32,000 nucleotides of DNA from Candidatus Saccharimonadota bacterium (lineage in GTDB: Bacteria; Patescibacteriota; Gracilibacteria; Absconditabacterales; Absconditicoccaceae). The notes beneath the pieces are model-generated. The model did not search any database, was not told the origin of the DNA, and saw only the letters and a program-made list of their open reading frames with translations. Below are positions 1-32,000 of this stretch, piece by piece. The stretch is taken from assembly GCA_965231145.1 (NCBI GenBank), contig OZ246420.1:420001-452000 (forward strand). The letters run 5' to 3'. Positions within the stretch are counted from its first letter, which is position 1. The number at the start of each line of letters is the position of its first letter. Made by a program: the position numbers and the translations under genes.

Positions 1-141
1 AAGATCAAAACGATTTTTGTAGTCTTCAAATATCCCCACGTTGCATTGCGGCATAAGTGCTTTTCACTCTTCGCTAAAGAATGCTTCCGGCTTAGATTCA
101 AATGTCAGGATAAGGTCTTGATGTAAATCTATTATCTTCAT
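1..141 (-). CDS. partial CDS (N-terminal 47 codons, runs off window); possibly a metal-dependent dipeptidase/amidohydrolase
   Basis: ATG at 141-139. The minus-strand frame MKIIDLHQDLILTFESKPEAFFSEE-G-KALMPQCNVGIFEDYKNRFDL is open to position 1 if TGA 64-66 is sense. The IDxHxD N-terminus is only weakly diagnostic. Confidence 0.4.
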
Positions 142-168
142 ATAACTTACTTACTTATAAATATAGCA

Positions 169-236
169 GCAATTAGATTATAGATGTTAGATTATAGCAA
201 AAAGTTGCTAACATCTAAAATCCAACATCTAATTGC
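169..236. repeat. family-1 imperfect palindrome, copy a (GCAATTAGAT..TAGATGTTAGAT..TAGCA / TGCTAACATCTA..ATCTAATTGC)
   Basis: The 31-nt arms 169-199 and 206-236 pair at 25/31 positions by hand alignment. The copy lies between the M20 gene stop (245) and the ATG of the next minus-strand gene (141). Confidence 0.7.
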
Positions 237-244
237 TATGTGGA

Positions 245-1561
245 TTAGTTACTAAAGAACAATCTACTAAACTCCAATCCTTTTTCAACACACGATAGCC
301 TGAAGTTTTCTCCCACTCCGTGCATGTTGCAGTCTTCATTTGCTAGGTCGGCGATGATGACGCTTGCGCCGAGTACTTCTTGGAACATACCAGTCACAGG
401 AATAGCTGCGCCTACATACCTATAGACAGTCTCAGTATTGTACAGTTCTCCGAGGATCTTCGCCGCTCTTCCGATCTCGACATGTGAGAGGTCGATCATG
501 ATAGCAGGATATGGGTCGCTAGTCTCTAGTGTATAGTCAACGTAATCTGGTAGTTCTTGTGTAACCCACTCTGAAAATAATGCTATCATGTTTTCAGGAT
601 GTTGTCATGGAGCGAAACGAAAGTTCATTTTAATGGTTGTTGTTGCAGGGATCGCATTACGATAGCCATTACCCGTATAACCAGATTGGATACCACTTAT
701 TTGAATCGTTGGTAGTAGTCCATTTGCCGTGACCGGATCATATCCCTCCTGTACAACCAATTTTTTCATCCCTGTCATGTTCTTTACATTTTCTTCATGA
801 AAAGGAACAGTCTTATTATTTTGTCTCATTTCGTCAGTAATGACACCTACGCTATCATAGTAGCCCGGCACGAAGATTTCATTTTTTTCGTTATACAGCT
901 TTGAAAGCAACTTCGTTGCTTCGTATGCGCTGTTAGGAGCTATTCCTCCGAAGAGTCCACTGTGTAGATCGACGTTTGCAGTTTTGAGTGTCAGTGTCAT
1001 GTTGCAACCTCCTCTGAAACTTGCTCCAATAGTTGGCGTGGTGTGACCAATGATCTCGCCGTCACTTATTAATACAAGATCACACGAAAGTAAGTCTTTA
1101 TAGTCATCAACAAACTTTGCGAGAAATGGCGAACCGGTCTCTTCGTCTCATTCGATCATGAATTTAACGTTGTACTTTAGCTCCCCTTTCTTGATCAGAT
1201 CAATGATCGTGACGATATGTATCATAATCTGTCCTTTGTTATCGACGGCTCCGCGAGCGACAAGTTTATTGTCTTGGATAATGAGCTTGAATGGATCGTG
1301 CTCCCAGCCTTCGCTGATGTCAGCTGGCTGCACATCGTAGTGACCATAGACCAAATATGTTGGTAAGCTTGGATCGACAACATAGTGCCCATAGACTATA
1401 GGGTTACTGTAGCCAGTGATTGCTTGTGCTACAAAGCCATTGCTTTTGAGAAGATCGACTAAGAAGTGAGCAGTCTTTTCGAGCTCCGGTTTGAATTGTT
1501 CGTCTGTTGAGATTGAGCGAAAGGCAATAAATTGCTGCATTAGTTCTAAGTAGTTTTGCAT
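245..1561 (-). CDS. M20-family metallopeptidase (dipeptidase / ArgE-DapE-CPG2 type), 438 aa
   Basis: Track ORFs 1148..1642, 605..1000 and 245..589 are one frame joined by TGA at 1148-1150 and 605-607. The first junction reads FMIE-G-DEETGSP, the M20 metal-binding EGEEE.GS-type motif. Other motifs present are GHYDVQP and ARGAVDNKG. ATG 1561, TAA 245. Confidence 0.85.
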
Positions 1562-1642
1562 TCTGTATCGTATATAAGAAGATAAATGCAGAGAAAAGTT
1601 TGTGTCATCATAAGAGAATACTCTTTGACAACACAAACGCAA

Positions 1643-1846
1643 TTAATGATAACCAGGATGTACTTTCCCGGCGGTAACAACAATACTGTTATTACGTGCA
1701 GTTTTTTCATTTTGTTCATCTGCTTTGTCATCTGGCTTGTCCGATGAGTTTCTTGTACGTGCAAGATGAATGTCTTCATGAATAGCCCAATGCTTGTTCA
1801 AATGGTACTGCTCTGCTGGCTGCTGTTTTTTGTCTTTTGTGTACAT
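1643..1846 (-). CDS. hypothetical small hydrophilic protein (67 aa)
   Basis: Clean ATG..TAA ORF co-directional with the M20 gene. No recognisable motif. Confidence 0.4.
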   Translation of the reverse strand: MYTKDKKQQPAEQYHLNKHWAIHEDIHLARTRNSSDKPDDKADEQNEKTARNNSIVVTAGKVHPGYH

Positions 1847-1910
1847 AACTTTTTATTTTTGATGATGAGTAATTTTGTTTCAATCTATATAATAAAAAGT
1901 CCCCTGGTGC

Positions 1911-2014
1911 TTTCGCATAGGAGACTCGATTATTATCGTGATGACAGTAGTTGTCGGGCTAGAAGGTCTGTAAGTAATATGCCGGCAACTGTGTATCATT
2001 ATCTCTATGCGAAA
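1911..2014. other. about 104-nt long imperfect hairpin in a divergent intergenic region (ncRNA or palindromic element candidate)
   Basis: TTTCGCATAG (1911-1920) pairs perfectly with CTATGCGAAA (2005-2014). Inner pairings are AGA/TCT, GAT..ACAGT/ACTGT..ATC and AGTTG-T-CGG/CCG-G-CAACT, with an apical loop of about 22 nt. Confidence 0.3.
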
Positions 2015-2166
2015 ATCTGACATGATGATGCCACTTTCTCATAAATGATCTAATAATACAAACAGTCTTTTGCATAGAGTTTTTCTGTGTTGGATATTTT
2101 CTAAATTGTATTTCATTTATAAAAAACTACTATTGGGTTGTCAATACTATTTTAGTACGAAATTCT

Positions 2167-2754
2167 ATGATGATAGAAAGAAGCAAACGAGAGCCATTTG
2201 TTGAGGTGTTCTTCAATAAAAATAAAGAACTAAATCTTTCTGCTATCCGTGATGCAGATGGAATTTTTGTGAAACACGTTCTCGATTCTCTCGAAGTTCG
2301 TAAAGTAGAAAGTTGAAAGTTCGTAAAGTGAAATGAGGTAATTGATGTGTGAACAGGTGGATGAATTCCCCTGCTTCCATTGGCTATAGCATATCCTGAT
2401 GTACATTTCACAGGACTCGACAGTGTCAAAAAGAAAACAGTAGCTATTGCAGATATGGCTGCTACCTTGGGATTACATAATGTCGATGTCGTGTGGTCTC
2501 GCGCCGAAGAACATAAGAAACAGTATGACATACTGACGGCGCGCGCTATGGCATATATTGATGATCTTATGAAGCGATGCTATCACCTTGTAAAAAAAGG
2601 TGGACTCTTCGTCTTATATAAAATGTTTTCAGAGGAGGAAGAAGCAAGAATAGATGGTTACTGTGAACAGAGAAAGATGAAAGTCCTTAGTAAACACTAT
2701 TATAAATTATTTGAAGAAGACATTCAGAGAGTGATTTACGTTATACAGAAATAG
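2167..2754 (+). CDS. rsmG: 16S rRNA (guanine527-N7)-methyltransferase RsmG/GidB, 195 aa
   Basis: ATG 2167 to TAG 2752-2754. Four in-frame TGA at 2314, 2329, 2350 and 2362. The SAM-binding motif reads IDV-G-TGG-G-IPLLPLAI, with both marked Gly encoded by TGA. Upstream is the NLSAIRD..IFVKHVLDSL motif typical of RsmG. Confidence 0.85.
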
Positions 2755-2806: not shown

Positions 2807-3184
2807 TTAATAATATTCAATTTGAATAAGCCATTCTTTCTTGCCGATTTTGCGGGAATAAATACGATGAAACTTATAGGTCACATCCTCCAACGCTTCT
2901 CCGTAATCTTCTTCAATGGGACTTCTTTGTCTGACAATGTTGATTATCTTTCCTTCTCCCGGAGGAAAAGAATAATAACAATAACTTTGAGACATTGTAA
3001 TAAATGCAACAATTAAGAGGCCTAAACCGATTATCCGTTTGCATTGACCTGGAGATATATTACATGTCGGGCCAATAACCCAATACAACATACTCAGGAT
3101 AAAAATTCCTGCAATCATAGGAATAAGAATACGAGTTTTGAACACGTAAGCTTTTTTGGGATGTGAGAATAATAATGTGCTCAT
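2807..3184 (-). CDS. hypothetical membrane protein (125 aa)
   Basis: ATG 3184 (MSTLLFSHPKK...) was chosen because the longer track ORF start at 3259 lies inside the upstream terminator hairpin. Two hydrophobic helices. TAA 2807. Confidence 0.5.
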   Translation of the reverse strand: MSTLLFSHPKKAYVFKTRILIPMIAGIFILSMLYWVIGPTCNISPGQCKRIIGLGLLIVAFITMSQSYCYYSFPPGEGKIINIVRQRSPIEEDYGEALEDVTYKFHRIYSRKIGKKEWLIQIEYY

Positions 3185-3705: not shown

Positions 3706-3729
3706 AAAACTAAGGAGAATCCTCCTTAG
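3706..3729 (-). terminator. intrinsic terminator after CDS 3726..4103
   Basis: CTAAGGAG-AAT-CCTCCTTAG hairpin with an A6 run on the plus strand. It overlaps the TAA stop. Confidence 0.6.
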
Positions 3730-4103
3730 CTATTGGTTATATTTTGTGTTCGATATTTGCTTGGTGCTATTCCTTTGTTCCACCAGAATACTATGGTGAT
3801 AATATAGGTAAGCACCGTAGGAATGCCATATGTGGCAAAACATGTAATAGATGTCTCTATCCATGCCAATGGCGTCCATGATGTGAGTAATATTGCAAGA
3901 ACACAACTCATGCATAACCAAATAAGCAGTGCAAGTGCAGTGTATTTGCTATATTCCTTATACCTTCCTCTTAGCTCAAAGTGTCGTGGAAAGAAAGGAA
4001 CCAATAGTAGTTGTGGTGATTTTCTGAGAAGAGCAATAAACTTTTCAGTTCGTTTCTTAATTATCCCACGAAAACGAAGCAATATATAGAGTAAAGCTAA
4101 CAT
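3726..4103 (-). CDS. small membrane protein, PFFPR-motif paralog B (125 aa)
   Basis: ATG 4103 to TAA 3726. Contains LLLVPFFPRHFELRGRYKEY followed by two or three hydrophobic helices. It is a tandem paralog of 3309..3638. Confidence 0.55.
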   Translation of the reverse strand: MLALLYILLRFRGIIKKRTEKFIALLRKSPQLLLVPFFPRHFELRGRYKEYSKYTALALLIWLCMSCVLAILLTSWTPLAWIETSITCFATYGIPTVLTYIITIVFWWNKGIAPSKYRTQNITNS

Positions 4104-4170: not shown

Positions 4171-6444
<2,274 letters not shown>

Positions 6445-6599: not shown

Positions 6600-8459
6600 T
6601 TAGTCATCGAGGTAGCTGAAATCGTCGTCATCCTCCCCCCATCCTGTTGACTTCTCTTCATCGTCATCAGACACTTTAGGGAGTTTCCCTTTCCCTTTCT
6701 TTCATCCTTTGTTCATGAGCTCCATCTTTTCGATGTCATCTTCGATACCAAGGATTTTCTGGAGACCGATATGCTCCTTCAATTTCTGAAGAACCTTTTG
6801 CTCGATCTGTCTGACACGTTCACGAGTTACCTGAAACTCTTCACCAACCTGTTCAAGTGTATATTTAGGTCCATCGATACCATATCTCATCTTGATGATC
6901 TTTGCTTCACGTTCATCAAGCATGCCAAGTATGTATCCAAGATTGTTCTTAATGGCATCCTTTTCAGCAGCCTGGTCAGGTCTCATCGTGTTCTTATCCT
7001 CGATAAGGTCTCCGAGAGAGTCTTTTCCGTCATCACCTACTTCACTGTCGAGTGAGACATTTCCGAAGATCACTTCTTCGAGCTTCTTGATCTTTTTGAT
7101 GTTGAAGTTCAATTTTGCTCCGATCTCTTTTGATGTCGGTTCACGTCCGAGCTTTTGGAAGAGTTCCTGATACGCTTTGTTATAGCTGTTGATTTCATCG
7201 ATAAGATGTACCGGTATTCTTACGTGTTTGGTCATGTCGGCAATAGCCTTTGTAACCGACTGTTTGATCCACCATGTTGCATAGGTAGAAAATTTGAAAT
7301 CCTTATCCGGATCAAACTTTTCAATAGCTTTGATAAGACCAACATTTCCTTCTTGAATGAGGTCTGAGAAGCTTAGTCTCGATCCAAAAAATCTTTTTGC
7401 GATAGAGATAACGAGTCTGAGATTTGACTCAATAAGCTTTTTCTTTGCATTTTCATCTCCACGTCTTACACGGATAGCGATTGCTTTTTCCTCTTCTGCA
7501 TTTAACAGAGGGATCTTAGAAATATCGTTGAAGTAGAGCTTAATATGATCGTGATACTGCTTGTCATTGATCGTATATTTTTTCTCATAGAGCTCAATTT
7601 TTCCAAGTTTTGTAGCGCCGTTTTCTTTCTCTTTCTTGTTTTCTTGTTCGAAAATTTCTTCGATAGTATATATTTTGATGCTGAGTTTTTCAGCAAGCTC
7701 GTAGAGCTTTTCAACGGTTTTGAGTTTCGCGTCGAGATCGTCTACTTCCGTAAGGATTTCGTCTTCCGTGATTTGCCCTGTTTGAGATCCTTTCTTGAGC
7801 AGGTTTTGTAGTTCCGGAGTCAGTTCATTGATATCGTCGCTTAGTTTTTCCCAAAGCTGTTGTCTATTAACGGTTGATTTCTTCGCTACTTTTCCTCCGG
7901 CAGCTTTGGTATCAGCATTTTTCTTTGCTTCCTTGTCGGCAGCTACTTTATTTTTTGTTGCCTGGGCAGCACCGAGCTTTGTGAGTGTCGCAAGCTGTTC
8001 CTTCTTTTTGGCTTGCGCAGCTATCCTTACCTGCTTTTCAAGCATGTACTGATCACGCTTGCTAAGTCTCACTTCTTTTGCAGAGGGTCTTACAGTCGCT
8101 TTTCCAGTCGTCTTTTTCGCTGGCGTAACGACTTTTTTCGTCGTTTTTGCGATGACAGATTTCTTTGCAGATGCGGCAGGGTTTTTAGGAGCTGCTTTCT
8201 TTGCTTTTCCAACAACCTTTTTCGCTCATTTCTTTGAAACCGGCTTTGATACTTTTTTCGTTCCTCCAGTAGATTTCTTACTGGGAGCTTTTTTGCTAGT
8301 TTTCTGGGGAGCTGCTTTTTTCGTTGCCTTCTTCTCAGGTTTTTTAGGTGCAGCCTTTTTTACTTTTACTGGGGCTTTCTTTGTTGCCTTTTTTGGTACA
8401 ACTTTTTTAACAGGTTTTTTCTTGCTCGCCATCCATGGATTGTATAAATTAAAAGACAT
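6600..8459 (-). CDS. rpoD: primary-type sigma-70 factor RpoD with a long Lys/Ala/Pro-rich N-terminal extension, 619 aa
   Basis: ORF 6702..8072 carries region 2 (DLIQEGNVGLIKAIEKFDPDKDFKFSTYATWWIKQ) and region 4 (TLEQVGEEFQVTRERVRQIE). The frame is continuous upstream through TGA 8226-8228 into ORF 8226..8459 (KKPVKKVVPKKATKKAP...). It is continuous downstream through TGA 6702-6704 to TAA 6600 (acidic tail DDDEEK..GEDDDDFSYLDD). An alternative ATG lies at 8432. Confidence 0.85.
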
Positions 8460-8580: not shown

Positions 8581-11052
8581 TTAGTTTCTTAGCTGTGCTC
8601 AATGTTTTTCTGCGGTTTGGACAACGCTTTGGATAATAGTATTGATCTGTTCCGATGTCATAGTGCCATCGCCTTGTATGCTAAATGTGAATGCTATAGA
8701 CTTCTTGCCTTCCGGTAGTTTGTTGCCTGCATATAAGTCGAATATTTCAATGTTGCTGATAGTATCAAGTTTGCGAATCGGATCCAGTATGGTATCCCAT
8801 GATTTATCTTTATCGATAACGAGACACACATCTCTTGAGATGATCTGATCTTGCAGTGTCTTGTAGCTCACTGCGGTTTCAGCAGGTTTTTGCATATACT
8901 CTTTTAACGCATCCATTCATACAGAGACAAAGGAAACTTGAGATGAATCTGCTAGCTTATAACGCTGTGCTACCAAAGGATGTATTGTAGCAATGTATCC
9001 TATAATTTTTCCATCAGCCTTGATCTCGGCCTGTTTTTTTGGATGAAACCATTCATGTGTCGTTGGCACGAGTTCAATGCTTTGTACACCGATACGCTTA
9101 AGCAATCCATAGAGATGTTCTTTTATGTCGAGTATTGTATCGTCTTCCCAACTGCTGATAGCTTTTTTATAGTGGATCATACCAAGCGCTTTCAACTCGA
9201 TCGGTGTACCATTGATGACTGGCCAGATCTTACCTGTATCAAAACATCTTATTTCATCGAATGTTCTGTGATTTTTCTCTACCAGTTCCATCATACTGTA
9301 GATGATTTCTGGTCTCAGGTAACGAAGCTCGGGAGCTGAAGGATTGAGAAGCATATATTTGTTATCAGATTGTTCTCGGAAGTTGTTGTAGCTTTTCTCA
9401 TCAGCCCATGGATATGTTTCACACTGATCCATATGAGCATCGTGGATAAGATAGTCCTCTACGAGTCTCTGTAAAGCAACTTCCGGCGTATAGGCTACAT
9501 ATGGCGTATTTCCTGTCAGTCACTTTGAAGCAATATTGTCATAACCATATATTCTTACGATTTCTTCATAGATATCTTCAGCGATATTCATATCGTCCGG
9601 TGAGCGTCGGAAAGGAATCGTTACAGTGTTATCTTTATAGTGAAATCCAAGATTAGTCAGTATCTTTGCAGCTATAGTATCAAAATTGCCTACTGCTTCA
9701 CCAAAGATGAGCGTACTTCCTTTTATAGGATCTATGGTAATAGTTTTCTTATGTGAAAGTGCGCTTTGGAGTATCTCTGCTACATGGTAACTAATTCCAT
9801 GGATAGTATGTCCTCCAAGATCTGTTGCAAAGAACTTGATCTCTTCCAGGAAGAGCAAGCAACTTGAGAGTGAGAAGATAGGATTGATATGTTTTTCAAA
9901 CCTCAATTCTGCATCAGTTCTGAGTCCAAGTCTTGTCCCTGTCTTTCTTACTGTGACGGGATTGAAATGAGCAATTTCTGCAATAATATTTTTCGTGCTG
10001 TCTGTCACACCACTGGTTTTTCCTCCGATAACTCCTCCCAGCGCAAGTATTTTTTCGTCATCGGCGATGACGATATCCTGCGGATCAAGGATGTGCTCTT
10101 TATCGAATAAGTCTGTGAATGTCTCGCCTTCCTTGGCATTTCTGACGGTGATTTTTCCCTTGATAGTATCAGCATCGAAGAAGTGTATAGGCTGACCGGT
10201 TGTCATCATGAAGATGTTTGAAAAATCGATCCGGTTATTTCTGCTTTGCTGTCCGATGTCCTGCATCATGAGTCTTGTATAGAGCGACGATCTTTGGACA
10301 GTGATGTCTTTGAACTCGATGGCTATATAGCTCTGGCAGTCAGCCGTTTCTACGTTTAGTTTGATGTCAGCTTTCTTTGCGTTATTGAGTGTGTCTAGTA
10401 CATTAGTAGTAGAGAATATATGTTGCCAGTCAGTCAGTTTGTTGAAAGGAATTTTTGCATCGAGCATACCGTAGATAGCTTGTAACTCCCATGCTATACC
10501 GAAATGTCCCGTAAGATCTGGCCTGTGCGTGACTGTCTTGTTGTCGACATCGAGAATAGCGTTGTTCATCCATGGATATTTCTCACCAAGCGATATACCA
10601 ATGTCTGCATCTGTCAGATCAGAAAGATCCTCGTTCATAATCCAAATCCAGTGCTTGTCTTCATCTTCGATGATACCAATCTCCCCTTTCGAACAGATCA
10701 TCCCGTTTGAGTCTTCGCCTCTCATCTTTCTTGGTTCGATCTTGAGATCAATAGCCGGAAGATAACATCCAGGGATCGCTACAGGCACATAGACATTTTC
10801 TATGATGTTTTCGCCTCCAGTACAGATCTGAAATTTCCCTGCTTTTCCGCAGTCGATCTGGCAGACTTTGAGCTTATCAGCATTTTCATGTTGCTTCACC
10901 GAAAGAACCTTGCCAATAACTACCTCAGCAGGCAGTTGTCTACTGATGATTTCTTCGATTTCACATGTTTTCAGTGTCAGGTGACGAGCGATGTTCTCTG
11001 CTGTGTCCTGTACACCGATATACTTCTTCACGAGATTGAGCGAATAGCGCAT
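8581..11052 (-). CDS. pheT: phenylalanyl-tRNA synthetase beta subunit PheT, 823 aa
   Basis: ORFs 9520..11052, 8917..9432 and 8599..8916 share one frame, joined by TGA at 9520, 8917 and 8599. The N-terminal tRNA-binding domain reads VVIGKVLSVKQHENADKLKVCQIDCG. The C-terminus AEKH-G-AQLRN fits the conserved GAxLR-type end. TAA 8581. Confidence 0.9.
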
Positions 11053-18030: not shown

Positions 18031-18495
18031 CTACTCCCATCGAGGCTTTTGCTCATTGGCATAGGTAGTTTCTTTGCGTATAGTTTTATTTACCCATTGT
18101 TTTGCAAATACGTGTAAAGTTGGTCTTTCTAATTTGTTCAAACTACATATTGCTTTATCAATTTCCTCCACTTCAGCCTGAGATACTTGCCCTTTCTTGT
18201 AATAACTTTCAGCTTTTCTATATACGTTTAGATATTTATTCCCCCATTCATTATATAATTCCTGATTTTTTCAATAACTAATATGATATATTAGGGCGAA
18301 TATACTTAAGAATAGTCCTATAATATCTAGTATTTTCACTCATCATTCTGCTAGGGAAATAATCGCCAGTAGTATAGGTATAGACAATAAAGTTATTTGA
18401 ATAAACATAGCTAAATCATGAGATTTATAGAACGCTTTGTATTGCATTCAAGCGTTTTCTCAAAGATTTTTGAGTAGTTCGGTCTGTTTTGTCAT
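18031..18495 (-). CDS. small 2-TM protein, SLATT-like membrane effector candidate (154 aa)
   Basis: Absent from the ORF track. ATG 18495 to TAG 18031 is open only if 5 TGA (18460, 18448, 18343, 18340, 18271) are Gly. It starts 9 nt after the upstream nucleotidyltransferase stop. Product: MTKQTELLKNL-G-ENA-G-MQYKAFYKSHDL, then two hydrophobic helices (AMFIQITLLSIPILLAIISLA and ILDIIGLFLSIFALIYHISY), then a helical tail. Only the architecture matches SLATT; sequence-level family membership is untested. Confidence 0.6.
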
Positions 18496-20964: not shown

Positions 20965-21312
20965 TTATAGAGTTGCTCCAGCAGCTGTTGCATGTTGATT
21001 AATAATTTCTTCGACTCTTGCTGGAGGAACAACGCCGATGAACTGATCAACTTGTACTCCGTTCTTGAAAAATGTGACTTGTGGGATGCTGTTTACCTGA
21101 TACTGTACCGCGAGTGGATAGTTGTCTTGCTGATCAACATCGATCTTTACGAGCGTTACCTTGTCTCCATGTTTTGCTGTGAGATCTTCAAGTACTGGCT
21201 TGAGGATACGACAAGGACCACACCATTCAGCCCAGAAATCTACCATAACAAGCTTATCTGATGTGCTAATGAGTTCGTTGAACTGCGTTGCGCCTACTAT
21301 ATCCATGATCAT
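20965..21312 (-). CDS. trxA: thioredoxin
   Basis: 115 aa with the WAEWCGPCRILKP active site. Trp here is encoded by TGG. ATG 21312, TAA 20965. Confidence 0.9.
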   Translation of the reverse strand: MIMDIVGATQFNELISTSDKLVMVDFWAEWCGPCRILKPVLEDLTAKHGDKVTLVKIDVDQQDNYPLAVQYQVNSIPQVTFFKNGVQVDQFIGVVPPARVEEIINQHATAAGATL

Positions 21313-21407: not shown

Positions 21408-21692
21408 TTAGTATGCTTCCGCAACATGTCCGTAACAAACATTGCGAACCATATCTTTGAGAGCTTGCATGACACCGTAAGAGAATTCCACGTATCATTT
21501 CACTGCCACGACTTCAAACTCTTCGAGTTCGTTCCATCCTGGTTTCATGCTGATGAGGAACTTGTGAGAGTTGATCTCCAGTACTACATCATACTTTCCT
21601 TCTTCCTTTTCATGGAAGATCGCTTTCATGTTGTTTCCTTGTACTGTGTGTCTGTCGAGAGTATCTTGTGTAAACAAAGCGGCTTGATACAT
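21408..21692 (-). CDS. hypothetical small protein (94 aa)
   Basis: ATG 21692. The track ORF ends at TGA 21495-21497, and under code 25 the frame continues as -G-YVEFSYGVMQALKDMVRNVCYGHVAEAY to TAA 21408. Confidence 0.5.
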
Positions 21693-21941: not shown

Positions 21942-22715
21942 ATGAGAAAAAGCTATTTCAACATTGTTGTGGAGAAACTTTCAAAAACTGTCGACAAGGT
22001 CGTAGAAATTGGGTTTATCAAAAAAATCCTCCAGCAGTGCATGGATGACGCCTATACCGACACAAAAACCTACAAACTTTTGCATCAGTTAAAAAATAAA
22101 GGATACATTGTTTCTCTCAGAAAAGACTTACTTTATGTCACGCTCCCCGACCGTCCCGCAGATCTTGCATATATTATCCAAAAGCATTATTGGTCGATCT
22201 TAAGAAAACACTGCCAGACATATGCAAACACATGACGAACTGTCACATGACTCAAAGCCCTTGAGCTACACATGATGAACTATGATGCGCCGGAGGCGGT
22301 CGATGTGCTCGACGAGAAGAAGCAGGCACAGGAGACGATCGTGGGTGACAAGAAGATTCGTTATAAAACGATGAAAGCAGAGGGAAAATCATTTTTGAAG
22401 AAAATTGTTCCGTATACCACCAAGCTCTATGTCGGAGGACATAGTTTTACTGTGACTAATGTGATATTATCTATCTTAGAAACTCTTTATAGCTTGGACG
22501 GTAGTGATGATACGTATCGCTATGAGCTGATTAAGAAAGCACTGAAGAAGTATCATAAGAGCATTGATCGGGAATGCGTAGTATTTGTCCTGCGTCAGTG
22601 AAAGTATCATACCAGTATCAACAGACTCTATAGGATCGCGCGTGGCATCGATGAGAAAATTGCACAGACGATAAAGGAGATCATCAAGAAGCACAGTTAT
22701 GATATTTCGGTATAA
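21942..22715 (+). CDS. AbiEi-like (winged-helix antitoxin/regulator-like) protein, 257 aa
   Basis: ATG 21942 to TAA 22713-22715. Three in-frame TGA at 22233, 22248 and 22599 join track ORFs 21888..22235 and 22272..22601. The N-terminal LHQLKNKGYIVSLRKDLLYV followed by T-G-RTVT-G-LKALELH resembles the AbiEi N-terminal and central pattern (recalled from memory, not searched). Confidence 0.4.
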
Positions 22716-23288: not shown

Positions 23289-24023
23289 ATGCGCTCAAGC
23301 TTATCACAAATAACACTATTGCAATGATACTATAAGTTCTTATCGCTTGCGATGTTCTTCGATCATCGTATAAAGACTGATGAGAGCATGCGCGTCGAAG
23401 ACGGCATACGCATGCTTACGGGTGAAGGCACAGCTTTTTCGCTCAACACCACTATGATAAAAAAGCTGCTCGCAGATATCCATAAGCACCCGGATAAGAA
23501 AAATATCTTTGGTTATCTGGCAACGATCAGTGGATTGAGATGAATCTTTTCTTGCATGAAGGACTTTATGCAGCAGGATCATCACTTTGAAAAGTTCCTG
23601 AAAGATCTGCTTGGCGAGCAATTTTCAGCATTTCAGAGGATCATTTTCTTTTGCCGCAATGTGCTTTCGCATCATATCACCGCAGATATTGTGCTGACCA
23701 AAGATGACTATGAGAAGCAGATGCTCATGCTGCAGCATGTAAAGACATTGGCATTTGATATGAACTATAAAGACGTCTTTGGTGCTGTGCGAAAAGGCAA
23801 AGAAAACTATGGGTTTGCAATACATATAGATACGGCTTCGATCCGTGAAGGACAAAAATACGCTGATATTATCCCATGGCACGAACAGCGAATGTTGGCT
23901 GAATTATGCTATAATTTCTCTGAGTACTATAAAGCAAAGAAAATCAGTAAAGCAGCGAAAGTGTCTGCACCGGTGAAACCAAGACAACCTCGCATGCCGA
24001 AAAAGAATAAACATGGAGTGTAA
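23289..24023 (+). CDS. hypothetical protein with an Rx4H (HEPN-like) motif, 244 aa
   Basis: ATG 23289 to TAA 24021-24023. In-frame TGA at 23325 and 23541 join track ORFs 23352..23543 and 23556..24023. Contains QRIIFFCRNVLSHHI (R-N-x-x-x-H) in a sequence that looks helical. Lys-rich C-terminal tail. Confidence 0.4.
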
Positions 24024-24127: not shown

Positions 24128-24988
24128 ATGAACTATTATCATGAGCCCGTTCGATTGGTTGAACCCGTTGGAAATAATGCTATTGCCTATGACGACAGAA
24201 TGGCTTTGGGCTCTCAGTGAAAACTCTTTATTCCTCAGCTGGTTACATGAACGTTGGATGATCTCGCTTTGTGAGATGAGATTGTTTTTGAGGAAGTCGA
24301 AAATGGAAAACTTATCTCGTGTAAGGGTCTACAATCATTACTCAAAATAGTACATAACTGAAAAGCCATTTACATCACAGACAATCATAATCACGCGTTA
24401 TACTTCCGGTACGACGCGCTCCACAACGGGCTTATTCAACCTGGAGCTATGCTCCTGCATATCGATCAGCATGCAGATTTTAATGAACCAAACTTTTATT
24501 TAAACTGAGAGAGCAAAGAGCTGAGAGCAGAGTGAAATACGGAAAAAATATTCAATAGAGAGGAAATGAGAAAAAGAGAAAATGAGGAAGCGTTGACTAG
24601 TGACCAGTGACTAGCAGCTAGTGACGATTATGACTTATGAGTTATTGCTGAATACGTGAATACACAAACACAGATAGCTTCTTTCATTAAGCCAGCATTA
24701 CACTCAGGACTTATTGGCGATTGCATTCAAATCAGAAGTGAGGCTAAGCTTCAGGAGATAATCCACAATAATATTATTGAGAATTGAGCCTTGAGAATTG
24801 GGAATAGTATTGTAGATATCGACATTGATTTCTTCGCTCATGAAACAGATGTGACTCATAAGATGTCACTTCTTCGCCAGCTCCTCTCCTCTGCCTCAGT
24901 GGCGACTATTGCCACGTCGCCTTATTTTATCGATCAGCAAAGAGCAATCGAGCTTGTTCGTGAGTTGTTACAAGAGAGTGAAAAATAA
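24128..24988 (+). CDS. UPF0489-like protein (arginase/deacetylase-fold superfamily candidate), 286 aa
   Basis: ATG 24128 to TAA 24986-24988. Nine in-frame TGA at 24218, 24245, 24269, 24359, 24506, 24533, 24608, 24638 and 24785. Motifs K-AIYITDNHNHALYF, LLHIDQHADFNEP, VDIDIDFF and IATSPYFID. Confidence 0.5.
24503..24640 (+). repeat. in-frame low-complexity word-repeat insertion in the UPF0489-like CDS (family 2)
   Basis: Encodes N-G-ESKELRAE-G-NTEKIFNREEMRKRENEEALTSDQ-G-LAASDDYDL-G. The core 24584-24625 is 32/42 identical to a segment inside rsmH (29908-29949, reverse complement) and sits in the same reading frame. Confidence 0.55.
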
Positions 24989-25901: not shown

Positions 25902-25952
25902 AAGATATATATAATTTATGATTTTTCTTCCGGAATGGGTTTTACATCTGTT

Positions 25953-26792
25953 ATGAAAAAAGTGTGAGCTGCGCTTGGTATCTCTTCGGTGGAAGAGGTC
26001 GAAGCAACAAGAAAGGCTGCAAATGAGAAGCCGCTTATTTCTGGTAAAGAAAATGAGGTGCTGAAGGAGACAAAAAGCTATTTTTCCAAGGATTATATGG
26101 ATAAACAGTGGACCACAGTAAAAAATGGATTTGCATCAGTTTTCAATAAAGTTTTTGATGAAGATACAATCAATCTTGATCCTCAGGACACCCCATGTGC
26201 CTATATTTCCGATAGAATTTATCTCAATCCTTTCGAGCGCCCAAGACATATCTTTGGGTATGAACTCGACGAAAAGTATAACGATATTGAGTCTGCGCTT
26301 TATGTAAATCATACCAATAAGACCTGGATCCTTGGATATAGAGGAACAGAAATCACGGAAGTAAAAGATTATATGAGCGATTTGCATATCCTTTTTGGTA
26401 CGCAGGCATGGAATACAAGATTTAACGCCTCTGTTCAAAGTTATGAAAATGCGAAAAAGGTATATCCTGACTATCATTCGGTAGTAACCGGTCATTCACT
26501 CGGTGGAACCATTGCGTATTTTATTGCCCAAAAGTTTAATCCGGATCGTTGTGTCGCTTTCAACCCTGGATCAAGCGCAAACCCAACCTTTGCGCAGCTC
26601 ATCGCTGATACACACAATCAAAAGCCATGGACAAGACATGTTTTTACATATCGTATGTCTCGTGACCCTATTTCATCTTTGAGTGTTATCGGTTATACAA
26701 GAAGCTTCCGTACTCGTAAGTTGAGTCCGATAGCTCTTCATCGTGTTGCAAATTTCTGTACGATCAAGGATGTAAGTAAGGACGTTTACTAG
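25953..26792 (+). CDS. class-3 (GxSxG) lipase-like alpha/beta hydrolase, 279 aa
   Basis: Nucleophile elbow VTGHSLGGTIAYFIAQ. Start at ATG 25953 (MKKV-G-AALGISSVEEV, with one TGA at 25965) or ATG 25935. The track start at GTG 25989 is possible only under a standard reading. TAG at 26790-26792. Confidence 0.7.
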
Positions 26793-26805: not shown

Positions 26806-26833
26806 TTGAAAAAGGGAAATGTATGGCTACAAT
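26806..26833 (+). promoter_or_regulatory. sigma-70-type promoter TTGAAA-N16-TACAAT
   Basis: Overlaps the track ORF start at 26819, which favours ATG 26855. Confidence 0.5.
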
Positions 26834-26854
26834 ACGGCTCTAAACATATTTCTT

Positions 26855-27409
26855 ATGAGTATAACCAACAAAAAACAGCACCCCTTTGATAAGAGGTATG
26901 GGAATACTCATATAGAAAATATATGTTTACTCCTTCTTCTTATTGCCATCGATCTGTTCATCTTTAGTCGTGAACATTTGCGAGCGTCAGCAGGATGGAC
27001 TTTTATGTGCATCATAGTGATGTATGTATTTATCCTTGTTCGCCCTGCTCTACTACGTCTCTCAGTATTCTCAAACATGGGAATGCGAATAAAAAAAATA
27101 AAACTTTTCCTCAAGGCTCAATTCTTTCAACTTGGGAAAGTTGCTATCACCCAACCCCCCTTCTATAGGTATTCGATTGTATTTGCAGGAATTATCGTAG
27201 GAGGATTATTCAATTATCTTGGTATAGATAACATGCAACAGGAAGATACAAGGTACGTGATCGTTCCATGTACGGTTGGCTCTCTCTTATTTGTGTTATT
27301 TACTGTTATTCCTCTTATAGGGATATATCTCTATACAAAGAGACGTAAGAAAAGATTATTAGCCTGACCGTTCTGGTTAGGCTTTTTTTTATGCGGTAAA
27401 TATGTATAA
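26855..27409 (+). CDS. multi-pass membrane protein (170 aa to TGA 27365; 184 aa to TAA 27407)
   Basis: MSITNKKQHPFDKRYG..., about 4 hydrophobic helices, basic tail TKRRKKRLLA. TGA 27365-27367 lies in the 5' arm of the terminator stem. Under code 25 the frame extends as -G-PFWLGFFLCGKYV to TAA. Confidence 0.55.
27361..27390 (+). terminator. intrinsic terminator
   Basis: 9-bp stem AGCCTGACC / GGTTAGGCT (one G-T pair), loop GTTCT, T8 run. Confidence 0.7.
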
Positions 27410-27492: not shown

Positions 27493-28578
27493 ATGATACG
27501 AGGTTTAGCCCCTATGGATGGAATAACAAACGCTTCTTACCGCATCGTCGTGAAGCGTATTTTTGACAAATATGCAAATCCTCACCCTCATATAGCTGAG
27601 GGAGCTCCTTTACAAAAGGAGCCTTCTATTGACGCCTTACGAATGCGAACTGAGTTCATGAATGCAGAAGGCTATGTGCGCCAGCCACAGCGTTTGGTGC
27701 ATCATATCATGAGAACAGAATTTGAGAACCAAACGATAGCGCAGATCTACTGAGGAGATCATGAAGATTTGATACAGACAGCGAAAGATATTGTTGCAAA
27801 GTATCCTGGCTTTGCTGGTATTGAACTGAATATTTGATGCCCATCACCGAAGGTGATGTCGTGCGGTGGTGGGGCTGGTATGATGAGAGATAAAGCCAAA
27901 ACGCTCGAGTTGATCGAGCGTTTGAGAGATGCTGTCTACCCAATCCCATTTAGTATAAAGACGCGTGCAGGATTGACCGATGATGATAAGGCTGCACAGA
28001 AAGAGTTTATCGTGGCTGCGGCGAAGTTTTGTAGGACGATTACGATCCATGGAAGAACATATAAGCAGTGACACTCAGGAAGTGTCGATCGGGAGTACTT
28101 GTATGATGTGAAAAATCGCGTAGGTGACTCCTGTCTTATCATCGGTAATGGAGGCGTGAAATCATATGAGGATGCACTGACAAAGAAAGGGAACCTCGAT
28201 GGTGTTATGATAGGACAAGCTGCGATTGCGGATCCATGGATATTTATTGGTCATACGCCTACTCTGGCAGAACGTCATGAAACGATACTCTTTCATCTGA
28301 AACTGATGATTATTGCGTATGATTACTACAATAAAAATCTGCATTTCACAGAAATATTTCAACAGCCGTCATATGAACAGTGGATGAAAGAAGTTGAAGA
28401 GTTTGATGTGACGCGTTATGATATAGGAAAGTCAGTGATTGAGTTTAGAAAATATCTGTTCAACTACGTCAATGGTCTTGTCGGTAACAGAGATTTCAAA
28501 AATGTGGTTGCGACAATTAGAGAGTATGAACCGTTGGTTGAAGCGATAAATACGTTCTTTAGCTGATTTGAACAATAG
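27493..28578 (+). CDS. tRNA-dihydrouridine synthase (Dus family), 361 aa
   Basis: ATG 27493 to TAG 28576-28578. In-frame TGA at 27751, 27835, 28069 and 28564 join track ORFs 27460..27753, 27853..28071 and 28099..28566. Motifs: LAPMDGITNASYR, QIY-G-GD, GIELNI-G-CPSPKV (the Dus xxN.GCP motif, Gly = TGA), and HGRTYKQ-G-HSG. Confidence 0.85.
27585..27632 (+). repeat. twin-hairpin element, copy 2 (in frame inside the dus-type CDS)
   Basis: CCCTCA-TATAGC-TGAGGG, then GCTCCTTT-ACA-AAAGGAGC, then the identical CTTCTATTGA. Both stems keep their pairing through compensatory changes relative to copy 1. Encodes ..PHIAEGAPLQKEPSID. Confidence 0.7.
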
Positions 28579-28619: not shown

Positions 28620-29003
28620 TTAATTCTCTAAGCGCTCTCCCGTATAAGAAACTTTCATGATGATCTTATCGAGCGTGAAATTGTGGGTATCTCTTTCACT
28701 GTCGAGATACTTGTTACCGCTCATCACATACTCCCATACTCTTTTTTGTTCTTCCGTGTTTTTTATTGCAATCAAGCTATATTCAAACTCGATCTTATCG
28801 AGGTCTTTTTGTTGTTGTCTTAAGAAAAATCCTAGTGTCGACCCCTGGTTTACGAAGTAGATATAGACACCAATAAAAAATAGTACCAATCCTCCAATGG
28901 CTCATACTTTTATGTATTCAACTAGTTTCTTATTTGCCCTGAGTCTTTTCTGGAGCTTCAAATACTCTCTTGCGACTGACTTGGCTATGGGTAACTTATT
29001 CAT
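28620..29003 (-). CDS. FtsL-like single-pass cell-division protein candidate (127 aa)
   Basis: ATG 29003 to TAA 28620, with one TGA at 28902. Basic N-terminus, one TM helix (LVLFFIGVYIYFV), coiled C-terminus. Its position directly downstream of rsmH matches dcw clusters. Assignment rests on synteny and architecture only. Confidence 0.45.
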
Positions 29004-29127: not shown

Positions 29128-30105
29128 TTATGCTACCCTCTCAATGATCCTAAACTTTGCACTTCTTGCTGCTCTATTACTCTTTACCTCGAGGTAATGC
29201 GGAGCGATAACCTTTTTATTGTAGAGGACAAACGAAGGGTTTTCATCAATTATTTTCTTGAAAGCGAGCTTTACGATGCGGTCTTCGATGCTATGATATG
29301 TCATGATAGCGCATCTTCATCATACATTGAGTGCAGCGGGAAATTTCTCCAGAAATGTGATAAGCTCTCCCAGCTCATTATTAGTCTCTATTCTTAAGCA
29401 CTGAAAGACTACGGCCATCTGCTCTTTTCTAATGCCTTTATTTCTCAGTGTGTTATTGAGCTCATGTGTGGTTTCGATCTTCTTCTCCGCTCTTTTTTCG
29501 ATGATAGCATCTGCCATATACAGCCCACTTGTCGGCGCAAAATCACCGTAGGTGGTGAACATCGTTGCAAGCTTTTCACGAGAGTATGTATTTACCACAT
29601 CTGCTGCACTCTGCCCACTACTCTGGTCAAAACGCATATCCAGTGGCGCGTCGTACAGAAATGAAAACCCACGGTCAGGATCTTTAAAATGTTCCATATT
29701 TACTCCAATATCCAGTAGGATATAATCAGCTCATGCTATCCCCTCTTTTTTCAAAATCTCATCAATATTTTTATAACTATCACGTACAAATCTTATATTC
29801 GCATGGTACTTTTCTACTAGCGCTTTGCCTTTTTCGAGCATCTTTTCATCGCGATCTATGGCTATTATCCTAACTGATGGATCATATGTCATAGCTCATC
29901 ATATATTGTCGCTAGCTGCTAGCTGCTCGCTGCTAGTCAATGATTCCTCCGAATTTAATTGTGCTTTGTGAATTGTACTTTGTAAATTGTTAAGTATGTA
30001 CTCGACATGTCCTCCATGCCCAAAAGTACCGTCGACATATACTTTTCGGTCGACAGGCATAGAAGCAAGAGTCTCTTTCGCCATAACTGGCTGGTGACGT
30101 AACAT
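29128..30105 (-). CDS. rsmH: 16S rRNA (cytosine1402-N4)-methyltransferase RsmH/MraW, 325 aa
   Basis: ATG 30105 to TAA 29128. In-frame TGA at 29899, 29731, 29320 and 29317. Motifs: VDGTFGHGGH, IIAIDRD, LLDIGVN..FKDPDRGFSF, and LNV-G-G-RCAIMTYHSIEDRIVK, where the conserved GGR glycines are a tandem TGA-TGA. Confidence 0.85.
29902..29991 (-). repeat. in-frame low-complexity word-repeat insertion in rsmH (family 2)
   Basis: Encodes NNLQSTIHKAQLNSEESLTSSEQLAASDNI between the GHGGH motif and the AIDRD strand, where E. coli RsmH has only about 6 residues. The DNA is built from about 14-nt near-repeats (TACAAAGTACAATT/CACAAAGCACAATT) and GCTAGCAGC words. Confidence 0.55.
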
Positions 30106-30325: not shown

Positions 30326-30703
30326 ATGAAAAAAGCATTCTTATTGTTTGCAGCAAGCTTACTAACTACTACATGCGCTGTAGCCGCAAAACGCATCACA
30401 GTGGATGCGGCTATGAAGCAAATCGCATCTGTTCTTCCGCAGCAGGGACCATCTACAAAATGGCTCTACATTGAAGCGGGTAAAGAGACCTGTAAAGTGT
30501 TCAATAGCACAGACGGTCATACTCATGAATTTACCCTTTCTCATGTCGTATGGAAATACGATGAATTGACAGGGAAAATACAGAAAAACACTTCTGTATC
30601 TAAGAAAGCGGCTCGTACTATCCGGCGTTTTTGTCGTGATATAAGCGAAAACGACTATTCCGTCGAGTATGTCTCTAAAGCGCAGGCTGAATGTATGAAC
30701 TAA
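30326..30703 (+). CDS. secreted/lipoprotein-like hypothetical protein (125 aa)
   Basis: Signal-peptide-like N-terminus MKKAFLLFAASLLTTTCAVAA. TAA at 30701-30703. No TGA. Confidence 0.6.
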   Translation: MKKAFLLFAASLLTTTCAVAAKRITVDAAMKQIASVLPQQGPSTKWLYIEAGKETCKVFNSTDGHTHEFTLSHVVWKYDELTGKIQKNTSVSKKAARTIRRFCRDISENDYSVEYVSKAQAECMN

Positions 30704-30719
30704 TGCTAATATATTATCA

Positions 30720-30746
30720 ATCAGCCGGTCCTCCGGCTGATTTTTC
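30720..30746 (+). terminator. intrinsic terminator
   Basis: TCAGCCGG-TCCT-CCGGCTGA followed by a T5 run. Confidence 0.7.
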
Positions 30747-30772
30747 TTTTCTAAAAGAAAAACCAGTTATCA

Positions 30773-30800
30773 TTGACTTATATTGCTGGCTCCGTACAAT
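30773..30800 (+). promoter_or_regulatory. sigma-70-type promoter TTGACT-N16-TACAAT with a conserved leader
   Basis: Same hexamers, spacing and downstream leader as 30238-30265. Confidence 0.6.
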
Positions 30801-30866
30801 TTACTCCTGTCAATATCGACACGTTCATTAACATTTATCACGAATCAAAAACACCAAACAATTACA

Positions 30867-31793
30867 ATGAAAAAAACACTATTGTTGCTCGTTTTCGCCT
30901 TTGCGCTTTGTTCTAATACTGCTACAGCGCAGCAGGACTCTCTGCTTGATATTATGAGGGGGAGAATGAAAGAATATAAAGACTCTACTTACACCATCGA
31001 AGTTTCGCCGCAAACGGCTGACTTCATGCAATTGCTGACGGCTATTACGTTGGCTGGCGATGTGCCTCCCAAAATAAATTACTTCTTACAGCCTAGTAGT
31101 TCAACACGATTTATTATTGTGCCCCGTATGTTCAAATACCCAGCATTCATAGGCGCTGATTATTATGAGTGTGATTATCGGTACGGTCAGCTAAAGTGGC
31201 ATTACAACATGCATAACCAATCATGTGAAAATGTTACTATTCGTGTGAAAAGCGGTAATAGGTATACGCAGCGCGGTCAGGTGCTTGATATACAGGAGGG
31301 CCTCTACTCTTTGCTTGAGGACGTTAAACATAAACGTTTATACGAAATTCCTGTTATAGACGTTCGCAAGAAGAGTGAGTTGGAAATACTCCCTTCACCA
31401 GTCTTTACTTTTTTGGAACCTGAATACTTTAAGTATGATAGTGTCTTGGGCTTCTATAGCACCACTGTTCAGCCTGATGTAGAGGGTTCGGCTGAGCTTT
31501 TTCAGCTACTTAACAGCATTACTATGAAAACAAAAGGAAGTATCAGTAAAAATACCTACCAACTTGTTACACCTACGAAAGATATTCCTATTCAGGAGGT
31601 AATAGGAAGTTACTATTATCAGTTCGGAGATATAAGTTGGTATGCAGAACATGGTAAGGTTACTCAAGTACATATCTATACTTCCAATATCTCGAAACTT
31701 ATGGTGGAGGGTATTTTGTATCAGCATGTTCTGTCACTTGTGGCAAACGACATTCAGCAGGACAAATGGACGGTCGACAACCGTAAATTATAA
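30867..31793 (+). CDS. secreted hypothetical protein (308 aa)
   Basis: ATG 30867, MKKTLLLLVFAFALCSNTATAQQ (signal peptide). TAA at 31791-31793. No TGA. Confidence 0.6.
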   Translation: MKKTLLLLVFAFALCSNTATAQQDSLLDIMRGRMKEYKDSTYTIEVSPQTADFMQLLTAITLAGDVPPKINYFLQPSSSTRFIIVPRMFKYPAFIGADYYECDYRYGQLKWHYNMHNQSCENVTIRVKSGNRYTQRGQVLDIQEGLYSLLEDVKHKRLYEIPVIDVRKKSELEILPSPVFTFLEPEYFKYDSVLGFYSTTVQPDVEGSAELFQLLNSITMKTKGSISKNTYQLVTPTKDIPIQEVIGSYYYQFGDISWYAEHGKVTQVHIYTSNISKLMVEGILYQHVLSLVANDIQQDKWTVDNRKL

Positions 31794-31818
31794 ACATTCC
31801 ATATCATTTCAATAATAG

Positions 31819-31847
31819 ATCAGCTGGGCTTTCCCGGCTGATTTTTT
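31819..31847 (+). terminator. intrinsic terminator (paralog of 30720-30746)
   Basis: CAGCTGGG-CTTT-CCCGGCTG followed by a T6 run. Confidence 0.7.
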
Positions 31848-31915
31848 GTTTGAATCGGGTCTTGCTTTGGCTATCAAAACACTTATTATTCTCTTGTTCA
31901 TCAAATGTAGATCAT

Positions 31916-32000
31916 ATGGAAAAAGAATCACTCGTCATTGAAATTAAGAATCATCCCTCCTATTTGCTGGATGTTCATGGTACATATGAGTACCTTATGG
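31916..32000 (+). CDS. partial CDS (N-terminus only), hypothetical
   Basis: ATG 31916, MEKESLVIEIKNHPSYLLDVHGTYEYLM..., open to the window end. Confidence 0.3.
   Translation, partial: MEKESLVIEIKNHPSYLLDVHGTYEYLM

Follow-up and report, generated by a model that had tools for sequence, protein, structure and literature searches.

The genes of a 32,000-base stretch of contig OZ246420.1 (positions 420,001 to 452,000, here called the window; guanine plus cytosine (GC) content 39.5%, zero N) are very probably written in NCBI genetic code table 25 with one further change, the reading of CGA and CGG as tryptophan, a code that has been predicted for the Absconditabacteria. In this code, which would depart from the standard bacterial one at three codons, UGA would be a glycine codon and TAA and TAG the sole stops, CGA and CGG would be Trp codons beside UGG, and CGU, CGC, AGA and AGG would stay Arg. 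The original prediction, made from the letters of this stretch, was of code 25 throughout the window. Its UGA and stop codon assignments agree with our results, but table 25 also keeps CGA and CGG as Arg, and this part did not hold: the two codons exchange with TGG and show no exchange at all with the remaining four Arg codons. Each of the two reassignments has been published before, the one to Trp as a computational prediction that is rarely applied, and the window is a further case rather than the discovery of a principle.

In-frame TGA codons and glycine

Open reading frames (ORFs) were taken between TAA and TAG only, with TGA masked as X, and were then searched against Pfam. A raw stop-to-stop comparison of ORFs between codes is uninformative because relaxing any stop inflates overlapping ORFs, and we used profile coverage and codon-level orthologue alignments in its place. 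Single-frame, full-length Pfam matches were obtained for M20, RsmG, NAD-dependent DNA ligase, RpoD, PheT, HD, an APH-type kinase, two ABC ATPases, a SMODS cyclase, SOUL, UPF0489, a class-3 lipase, Dus and RsmH, and trxA and a conserved gene of 94 amino acids were placed on the map by comparison with relatives. The resulting map contains 30 genes (1 partial) on about 80% of the window. Its in-frame codons include 70 TGA, found in 20 genes (a hand count had given roughly 70), 28 CGA, 11 CGG and 76 TGG; of the 29 complete genes, 20 have TAA and 9 have TAG as their stop.

The ten TGA coordinates that had been quoted as falling on conserved motifs are all exact, each being a TGA (TCA on the minus strand) within the expected peptide. 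With X standing for TGA, these contexts are IGSLSGXEAKR at 16599, DVXTGGXIP at 2350 and 2362, ELNIXCPSP at 27835, LNVXXRCAIM at 29320 and 29317, MIEXDEETGS at 1148, SIKXIGEE at 4615, EKHXAQLRN at 8599 and FLAXSFKR at 19300. As had been claimed, the genes are interrupted by TGA alone, and none of the 30 contains an in-frame TAA or TAG or requires a frameshift. The table-25 products align in a single frame with Pfam and NCBIfam profiles over their full length across the TGAs: the match of PheT to TIGR00472 takes in positions 1-798 of 798, that of LigA to TIGR00575 positions 2-648 of 652, and in PheT the TGA at 8599 is read through and the last profile position, 798, is reached before the TAA. 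The claim is not circular, since these NCBIfam models, which are of the equivalog type, are matched from one end to the other through the TGAs. That code-11 annotation fragments these genes was also borne out: the same contig is present in Logan ERR4405439, where code-11 calls divide pheT into pieces of 510, 171 and 105 amino acids and leave both ligA and the ABC-F gene in several fragments.

It is extremely improbable that the TGAs are real stops, as they would be in pseudogenes, through assembly errors or at sites of selenocysteine or programmed read-through. The presence of TGA itself would fit such a reading, and nothing further does. Against it stand the 70 TGAs with no TAA, TAG or frameshift in 30 genes that include the essential ligA, pheT and rpoD, the full-length profile coverage, and the recurrence of the TGA positions, or their change to GGN, in independent assemblies; the Rfam search of the window found neither a selenocysteine insertion sequence (SECIS) nor any other RNA family.

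For codon-level comparison we used nine related contigs, six found via PheT and three via Dus homologues, which are syntenic with the window and have 34-87% protein identity to it; related loci are cited below by handles such as L002 where they must be told apart. Fourteen window genes were aligned codon by codon with their orthologues on these contigs. The alignments were limited to verified gene frames because a six-frame ORF BLAST gave many off-frame antisense matches, and trxA is not in the exchange matrix. The codon opposite a TGA was GGN in 139 pairs, TGA in 20 and TGG in 3. Solved structures of homologues, all from organisms that use the standard code, also have Gly opposite the TGAs of the conserved motifs: ABC-F codons 34, 56, 162 (the LSGGE motif) and 384, so that four of the five ABC-F TGAs, LSGGE included, match Gly of EttA; RsmG codons 62 and 66 (TGA 2350 and 2362) in 4 of 4 structures; Dus codons 87 and 115; LigA codons 292 and 563; PheT codon 818; and the RsmH pair 262/263 (29320/29317), opposite Gly-Gly in 3 of 3 structures. 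At M20 codon 138 (TGA 1148) human and mouse CNDP2 have Gly. Other TGAs lie at positions that vary among the solved-structure homologues (D, E, K, S, P, N), and Trp stands opposite a TGA once, at RsmG codon 50 compared with T. thermophilus, in a variable loop.

Profile scores point the same way. Each of the 7 proteins compared scored higher with TGA read as Gly than as Trp, the gains adding up to 59.8 bits. With code 4, code 25 and code 25 plus CGA and CGG (together CGR) as Trp, the respective scores in bits were 659.2, 672.7 and 678.8 for LigA (TIGR00575), 542.9, 546.7 and 549.9 for PheT (TIGR00472), 110.7, 125.1 and 128.7 for RsmG (TIGR00138), 127.7, 139.9 and 148.1 for Dus (PF01207), 234.5, 243.9 and 242.7 for RsmH (PF01795), 35.7, 39.0 and 41.6 for APH (PF01636), and 31.8, 35.0 and 38.4 for UPF0489 (PF12640). 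Codon pairing, solved-structure homologues and profile scores thus concur on UGA as glycine.

These results bear directly on code 4, in which UGA is Trp, as it is in the Mycoplasmatales and several insect endosymbionts. In-frame TGA fits any sense reassignment, and many public translations of the relatives do carry W at TGA columns, of which code-4 gene calls are the simplest cause. The TGA-GGN count of 139 against 3 for TGA-TGG, the Gly at motif sites of solved structures with Trp in a single cell (RsmG codon 50), and the lower scores in 7 of 7 profiles leave this reading with next to no chance of being correct. Code 4 had previously been set aside on the ground that TGG still encodes Trp, for example in the WCGPC motif of trxA. 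The motif does use TGG (21225), but code 4 also keeps TGG as Trp and the argument is therefore invalid; code 4 is excluded because TGA falls on Gly columns.

TGA 25965-25967, codon 11 of the lipase-like gene, is the only TGA that stands opposite Trp-type codons (TGG, CGG and TGG) in 3 of 3 relatives; this could be a real Trp-to-Gly substitution through a single TGG-to-TGA change, or the true start codon could lie downstream. In rsmH a second tandem TGA-TGA (29896-29901, codons 69-70), which was absent from the earlier list of motifs, lies within an insertion of about 35 residues (approximately residues 41-75) that is missing in three relatives and unaligned in the solved RsmH structures.

CGA and CGG codons and tryptophan

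The first sign of a second change, which the original prediction had not noticed, came from a control tabulation of TGG, which contained 28 pairs of TGG with an 'Arg' codon; the codon was CGA or CGG in all 28. In the exchange matrix over the nine loci, CGR was paired with TGG 60 times, with Phe or Tyr codons 4 times and with CGU, CGC, AGA or AGG never. The other Arg codons were paired among themselves 491 times, with Lys codons 67 times and with TGG never, and the uncoupling of CGR from them is very strong (Fisher p about 8e-82). Each codon shows this separately: TGG was the partner of CGA 29 times (7+22) and of CGG 31 times (6+25), with no other Arg codon opposite either. Under the standard code CGA and CGG would be expected to swap constantly with the other four Arg codons at 70% protein identity, and here they never do. 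A scan of all 64 codons found a changed meaning for TGA, CGA and CGG only; its two further flags, ATG and AGA, are expected artefacts, since ATG has no synonym and the commonest non-identical partner of AGA is Lys.

The 39 CGR codons of the window are spread across 20 of the 30 genes and make up 34% of its Trp-type codons. Orthologue data exist for 19 of them. At 8 of these sites at least one relative has TGG, at 9 the relatives have solely CGA or CGG, and 2 are variable; a CGY, AGR or Lys codon was found opposite none of the 19. The dus CGA at 27646 is TGG in two relatives, the UPF0489 CGG at 24407 is TGG in L008, and the ligA CGR sites are TGG at 3 of 3 in L002. PheT CGA 9607 (codon 482) corresponds to the Trp of the E. 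coli PSWR motif and is TGG in four relatives. The exchange also runs in the opposite direction: at Trp sites of universal conservation, relatives have CGR in place of the window's TGG. The YATWW motif of RpoD is TGG-TGG in the window and CGG-TGG in L003, and the conserved Trp site in Lig[10 protein letters not shown] is CGA in L002.

The CGR sites of Dus, RsmG, PheT, LigA and RsmH were compared with solved-structure homologues. Trp was found at Dus 200 (CGG 28090) in two structures, at RsmG 137 (CGA 2575) in two (E. coli and M. tuberculosis, with Leu in two others) and at PheT 482 in E. coli. The residues were Phe and Phe at LigA 373 (CGG 5326), Phe and Tyr at LigA 486 (CGG 4987), Phe at Dus 52, Phe and Leu at RsmG 8, and Val and Leu at PheT 274; PheT 559 and RsmH 20 are variable, and LigA 461 (CGA 5062) is opposite Arg and Lys. 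With CGR read as Trp instead of Arg the profile score rose in 8 of 9 proteins, with a net gain of 34.1 bits. The Trp-minus-Arg differences were +8.2 bits for Dus, +7.9 for SMODS (PF18144; 50.8 bits with Arg and 58.7 with Trp), +6.1 for LigA, +3.6 for RsmG, +3.4 for UPF0489, +3.2 for PheT, +2.6 for APH, +0.3 for SOUL and -1.2 for RsmH. Summed over Dus and SMODS, the scores by residue placed at CGR were W 206.8, Y 204.5, F 202.4, L 199.9, C 196.7, R 190.7 and G 188.9 bits. The profile scores thus say that CGR is aromatic or hydrophobic rather than Arg. Tyr, Phe and Leu, whose profile scores are near that of Trp, were rejected on the interchange with TGG (60 cells, against 4 for Phe and Tyr); CGR swaps freely with TGG and not with Phe or Tyr codons, which argues for Trp.

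The same signature is present in public proteins. The best 120 Dus homologues all belong to the same recoded clade and are translated in mixed codes, so that their columns are biased; we used them solely for the mixture of W and R and took the absolute assignment from the solved structures and the curated Pfam and NCBIfam profiles. Their DPWIF Trp column has W in 63 and R in 56, while invariant Arg columns have R in 118-120 and W in none, and this mixture shows what appears to be the same phenomenon clade-wide. Of nine homologues of the cyclase, eight have W at both CGR columns. CGR makes up 58-78% of the Trp-type codons in the four closest relatives (L003, L008, L009 and L010) compared with the 34% of the window; in the more distant L004 and L005 the aligned part of pheT is free of CGR, and in L004 TGA encodes 68% of the glycines.

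Plain table 25, with UGA as Gly, all sense codons standard and CGA and CGG as Arg, is very unlikely to be the code of the window. Its UGA part is fully supported, it is assigned to the whole clade by present tools and by GTDB-based ground truth, and at LigA 461 two solved ligases have Arg or Lys opposite the CGA. The exchange matrix contradicts it, however, with no CGR opposite other Arg codons against 491 Arg-Arg cells and with 60 CGR-TGG cells, as do the CGR codons at universally conserved Trp sites of relatives and the lower score of Arg than of Trp in 8 of 9 profiles. We also consider it quite unlikely that CGA and CGG are in transition, their reassignment not being clean and their reading either ambiguous between Trp and Arg or inefficient. 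The two codons are still rare in the window (3.0 and 1.2 per 1000, compared with 8.0 for TGG), LigA 461 is Arg or Lys in distant homologues, and ambiguous translation was left possible, pending experiment, by the paper that predicted the code (PMC8629427). Frequent misreading would, however, be costly where CGR has a 58-78% share, as in the nearest relatives, and includes invariant Trp of catalytic cores, and among the 19 window sites with orthologue data there is none where an Arg or Lys codon stands opposite CGR. That the meaning of CGA and CGG in this lineage is partly Trp and partly Arg, or depends on context, is likewise unlikely.

Several observations weigh against the reading of CGA and CGG as Trp and of the window as DNA of the Absconditabacteria. 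LigA 461 (CGA 5062-5064, in the zinc-finger region) is Arg in E. coli and Lys in T. filiformis; it is TGG in L002 and CGA in L003, and it is the sole window CGR site that is Arg-like in distant homologues. RsmH codon 20 scores 1.2 bits lower as Trp than as Arg, and Dus alone scores higher with CGR as Tyr (149.7 bits) than as Trp (148.1), profiles being unable to separate Trp from Tyr or Phe. Of the 39 CGR codons, 20 lie in genes that have no orthologue on the compared loci. The window and ten related loci contain no relevant transfer RNA (tRNA), and the window contains no release-factor gene. All three codon meanings are read from conservation, and the literature likewise calls the Arg-to-Trp change a computational prediction. 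Finally, the basis of the placement is the names of homologues, which point to the Absconditabacterales/SR1, together with the code itself.

Comparison with known codes and likely origin

Table 25, the Candidate Division SR1 and Gracilibacteria code, reportedly goes back to Campbell (2013) and Rinke (2013). It has in common with the window UGA as Gly and TAA and TAG as sole stops but keeps CGA and CGG as Arg, as the window apparently does not. Table 4, used by Mycoplasma/Spiroplasma and some endosymbionts, also makes UGA a sense codon, which is Trp in table 4 and would be Gly in the window; among table 4 users, UGA as a sense codon goes with the loss of release factor 2 in small, AT-leaning genomes. 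Anaerococcus and the RFN20 Bacilli (Onthovivens) resemble the window in that a rare Arg CGN codon has been captured by Trp. They differ in that CGG alone changes, with CGA staying Arg (inosine tRNA) and UGA a stop, whereas in the window both CGA and CGG would change and UGA would be Gly.

The closest known code is that of Shulgina and Eddy (eLife 2021, PMC8629427), who predicted with Codetta that the Absconditabacteria read UGA as Gly and both CGA and CGG as Trp. Their prediction was based on tRNAs with anticodons UCG and CCG and Trp identity features (G73, no A20), on the absence of tRNA-Arg (anticodon ACG) in the Candidate Phyla Radiation and on the little use made of CGN codons. A 2026 paper in Nucleic Acids Research repeats the assignment of CGA and CGG to Trp in the Absconditabacteria (PMC13092985), and a 2026 preprint on table prediction gives the clade table 25 and describes bacterial sense-codon changes as 'computationally predicted'. 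Within the papers covered by our search we found no experimental confirmation of CGA and CGG as Trp. The window is like the code of Shulgina and Eddy in the three identical codon meanings, in having CGU, CGC, AGA and AGG as Arg with AGA as the main Arg codon, and in using CGA more often than CGG while using both less than ordinary bacteria do. It is unlike it in its GC content, which lies just above the 0.26-0.38 of the reassigned clades, and its CGR share (34%, and 58-78% in the closest relatives) resembles that of the single 'advanced' assembly in their paper. On all testable features the window appears to fit this variant and to deviate in degree only.

Decoding would follow the mechanism suggested by the literature. 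UGA would be read by a tRNA-Gly with anticodon UCA, release factor 2 having been lost. For CGA and CGG the decoding tRNAs would have the anticodons UCG and CCG together with the identity elements of Trp, and tryptophanyl-tRNA synthetase would charge them; a tRNA-Arg with anticodon GCG would decode CGU and CGC. The capture of the codons would have happened while they were rare. A tRNA scan of the window found no tRNA gene, and neither an Rfam family nor a release-factor gene was found within its 32,000 bases. The scan of ten related loci gave only a tRNA-Gln (anticodon UUG), in two distant relatives.

An origin in the world of SR1 and the Gracilibacteria, which the original prediction had proposed, is supported by the names of the best named Dus homologues: Absconditabacterales, candidate division SR1 and Vampirococcus lugosii. 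The PheT relatives include one SR1 metagenome-assembled genome (MAG) and unclassified Patescibacteria MAGs. The window, which has ligA, pheT, rpoD, rsmG, rsmH, dus, trxA and ABC-F among its genes, is probably ordinary chromosomal DNA of an uncultured bacterium of the Absconditabacterales/SR1 type.

Gene content of the window and consequences of the code

The left edge of the window is crossed by a gene whose 5' part (1..141, minus strand; MKIIDLHQD...) has one TGA (64-66) and 50% identity to an ORF of L002. It is followed by an M20 family peptidase of 438 amino acids (245..1561, minus; PF01546 and PF07687; TGA 1148 and 605) and by rsmG, the 16S rRNA m7G methyltransferase of 195 amino acids (2167..2754, plus; TIGR00138), with TGA at 2314, 2329, 2350 and 2362 and CGA at 2188 and 2575. 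Two small membrane proteins of 125 amino acids each, called from ORF and codon count and without a family match, lie on the minus strand at 2807..3184 (CGG 3035) and 3726..4103 (CGA 4050, 3984 and 3750). The NAD-dependent DNA ligase gene ligA (4171..6444, minus; 757 amino acids, TIGR00575) has seven TGAs (6004, 5671, 5617, 5569, 4756, 4615 and 4288), CGG at 5326 and 4987 and CGA at 5062. Next to it is rpoD, the primary sigma factor (6600..8459, minus; 619 amino acids; Pfam sigma-70 regions 1.2, 2, 3 and 4; TGA 8226 and 6702). Its product has an N-terminal extension of about 200 residues, rich in Lys, Ala and Pro and histone-H1-like with KKA/KKP repeats, at approximately residues 10-200 (about 7860-8430) before region 1.2. 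L002 and L003 share this extension, their alignments spanning 99-100% of the protein. The Phe-tRNA ligase beta chain gene pheT (8581..11052, minus; 823 amino acids, TIGR00472) has TGA at 9520, 8917 and 8599, CGG at 10231 and CGA at 9607 and 9376.

On the plus strand an HD-domain protein of 317 amino acids (11227..12180; PF01966; 2 TGA) precedes an APH-type phosphotransferase of 293 amino acids (12255..13136; PF01636; 4 TGA), in which CGA 12732 directly follows TGA 12729. The ABC ATPase with two cassettes (13200..14666, minus; 488 amino acids; Pfam) has neither TGA nor CGR, and the exact protein is present on Logan contig ERR4405439_16834. Two hypothetical proteins called as ORFs follow, one of 233 amino acids (14911..15612, plus; 3 CGA and 1 CGG) without a family match and one of 100 amino acids (15718..16020, minus; 1 CGA) with a code-11 gene of equal length at the syntenic position of L001. 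The EttA/Uup-like ABC-F ATPase (16116..18026, plus; 636 amino acids; Pfam) has TGA at 16215, 16281, 16293, 16599 and 17265.

An apparent two-gene, CBASS-like pair (cyclic-oligonucleotide-based anti-phage signaling system) occupies 18031-19434 on the minus strand, with the cyclase first and then a two-transmembrane protein. The SMODS / CD-NTase-type cyclase (18505..19434; 309 amino acids; PF18144; 8 TGA, CGA 18910, CGG 18805) was recognized by PADLOC as an oligonucleotide cyclase (E=4.5e-39). Its two-transmembrane neighbour (18031..18495; 154 amino acids; 5 TGA, 1 CGA) was not recognized by PADLOC and has a weak SLATT_6 match (E=0.007) under the Pfam cut-off. The pair is a compositional outlier, with GC contents of 0.286 for the cyclase and 0.316 for its neighbour compared with 0.395 for the window, and is rich in TGA (8 + 5 codons). 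No SMODS homologue was found on L008-L010, and between the ABC-F gene and trxA L008 and L010 have other genes (in L010 a Fic gene). All nine database homologues of the cyclase look UGA-recoded, with a mixture of W and G at TGA columns, and some have 0-1 Gly and about 15 Trp; the module may circulate only among recoded bacteria.

Beyond this pair are a SOUL haem-binding family protein (19498..20100, minus; 200 amino acids; PF04832; CGA 19546), a hypothetical protein of 195 amino acids (ORF at 20270..20857, plus; 1 CGA; a code-11 gene of equal length at the syntenic position of L001), the thioredoxin gene trxA (20965..21312, minus; 115 amino acids; WCGPC with TGG; Pfam thioredoxin on L001) and a conserved small protein of 94 amino acids (21408..21692, minus; TGA 21495) with 76-82% identity to ORFs of L002, L008, L009 and L010. 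A conserved hypothetical protein of 257 amino acids (21942..22715, plus; 3 TGA, CGA 22236, CGG 22569) has 77-86% identity to four relatives, in which its TGAs are opposite GGN or TGA and its CGR codons opposite CGR. Another, of 244 amino acids (23289..24023, plus; 2 TGA, 2 CGA), has 72-73% identity to three relatives, and it is followed by a UPF0489-domain protein of 286 amino acids (24128..24988, plus; PF12640; 9 TGA, CGA 24152, CGG 24407).

The last part of the window begins with the class-3 lipase-like protein (25935..26792, plus; 285 amino acids; PF01764; TGA 25965) and a membrane protein of 196 amino acids (ORF at 26819..27409, plus; 1 TGA, 2 CGA; a gene of equal length at the syntenic position of L008). 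The tRNA dihydrouridine synthase gene dus (27493..28578, plus; 361 amino acids; PF01207) has TGA at 27751, 27835, 28069 and 28564, CGA at 27499, 27640 and 27646 and CGG at 28090. A conserved small membrane protein of 127 amino acids (28620..29003, minus; 1 TGA; 74-86% identity to three relatives) lies between it and rsmH, the 16S rRNA m4C methyltransferase gene (29128..30105, minus; 325 amino acids; PF01795), with tandem TGA-TGA at 29320/29317 and 29899/29896, TGA 29731 and CGA 30046. A secreted or lipoprotein-like protein of 125 amino acids (30326..30703, plus; 1 CGG) and a secreted protein of 308 amino acids (30867..31793, plus; 1 CGA, 1 CGG), both called as ORFs, complete the map. Four stretches of 540-950 bases (1562-2166, 3185-3725, 22716-23288 and 24989-25934), long for a compact genome, have no convincing gene, match to an ORF of the relatives or Rfam family. 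A 260-codon ORF at 25020-25802 (plus) has no family match and no match to the relatives' ORFs; at its position L008 and L010 have a gene of about 110 amino acids instead.

The choice of translation table has direct consequences for annotation. Code 11 breaks 20 of the 30 window genes, and code 4 would give Trp at 70 Gly positions. Table 25 is the choice of NCBI, of GTDB-based pipelines and of the newest table predictors for this clade; it would put Arg in place of Trp, the most probable residue, at 39 positions (about one third of the Trp of the window, with a share of over half in its closest relatives). Public proteins of the relatives contain both kinds of error, with W at Gly/TGA columns from code-4 gene calls and R at invariant Trp columns from CGA and CGG read as Arg, and such mixed-code entries pass both errors into the alignments and profiles built from them. 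The mistranslation skews homology searches, structure prediction and conservation analysis across the group. The many alternations of CGR and TGG at conserved sites make this lineage well suited to an experimental test of a sense-codon reassignment that is so far known from computation only.

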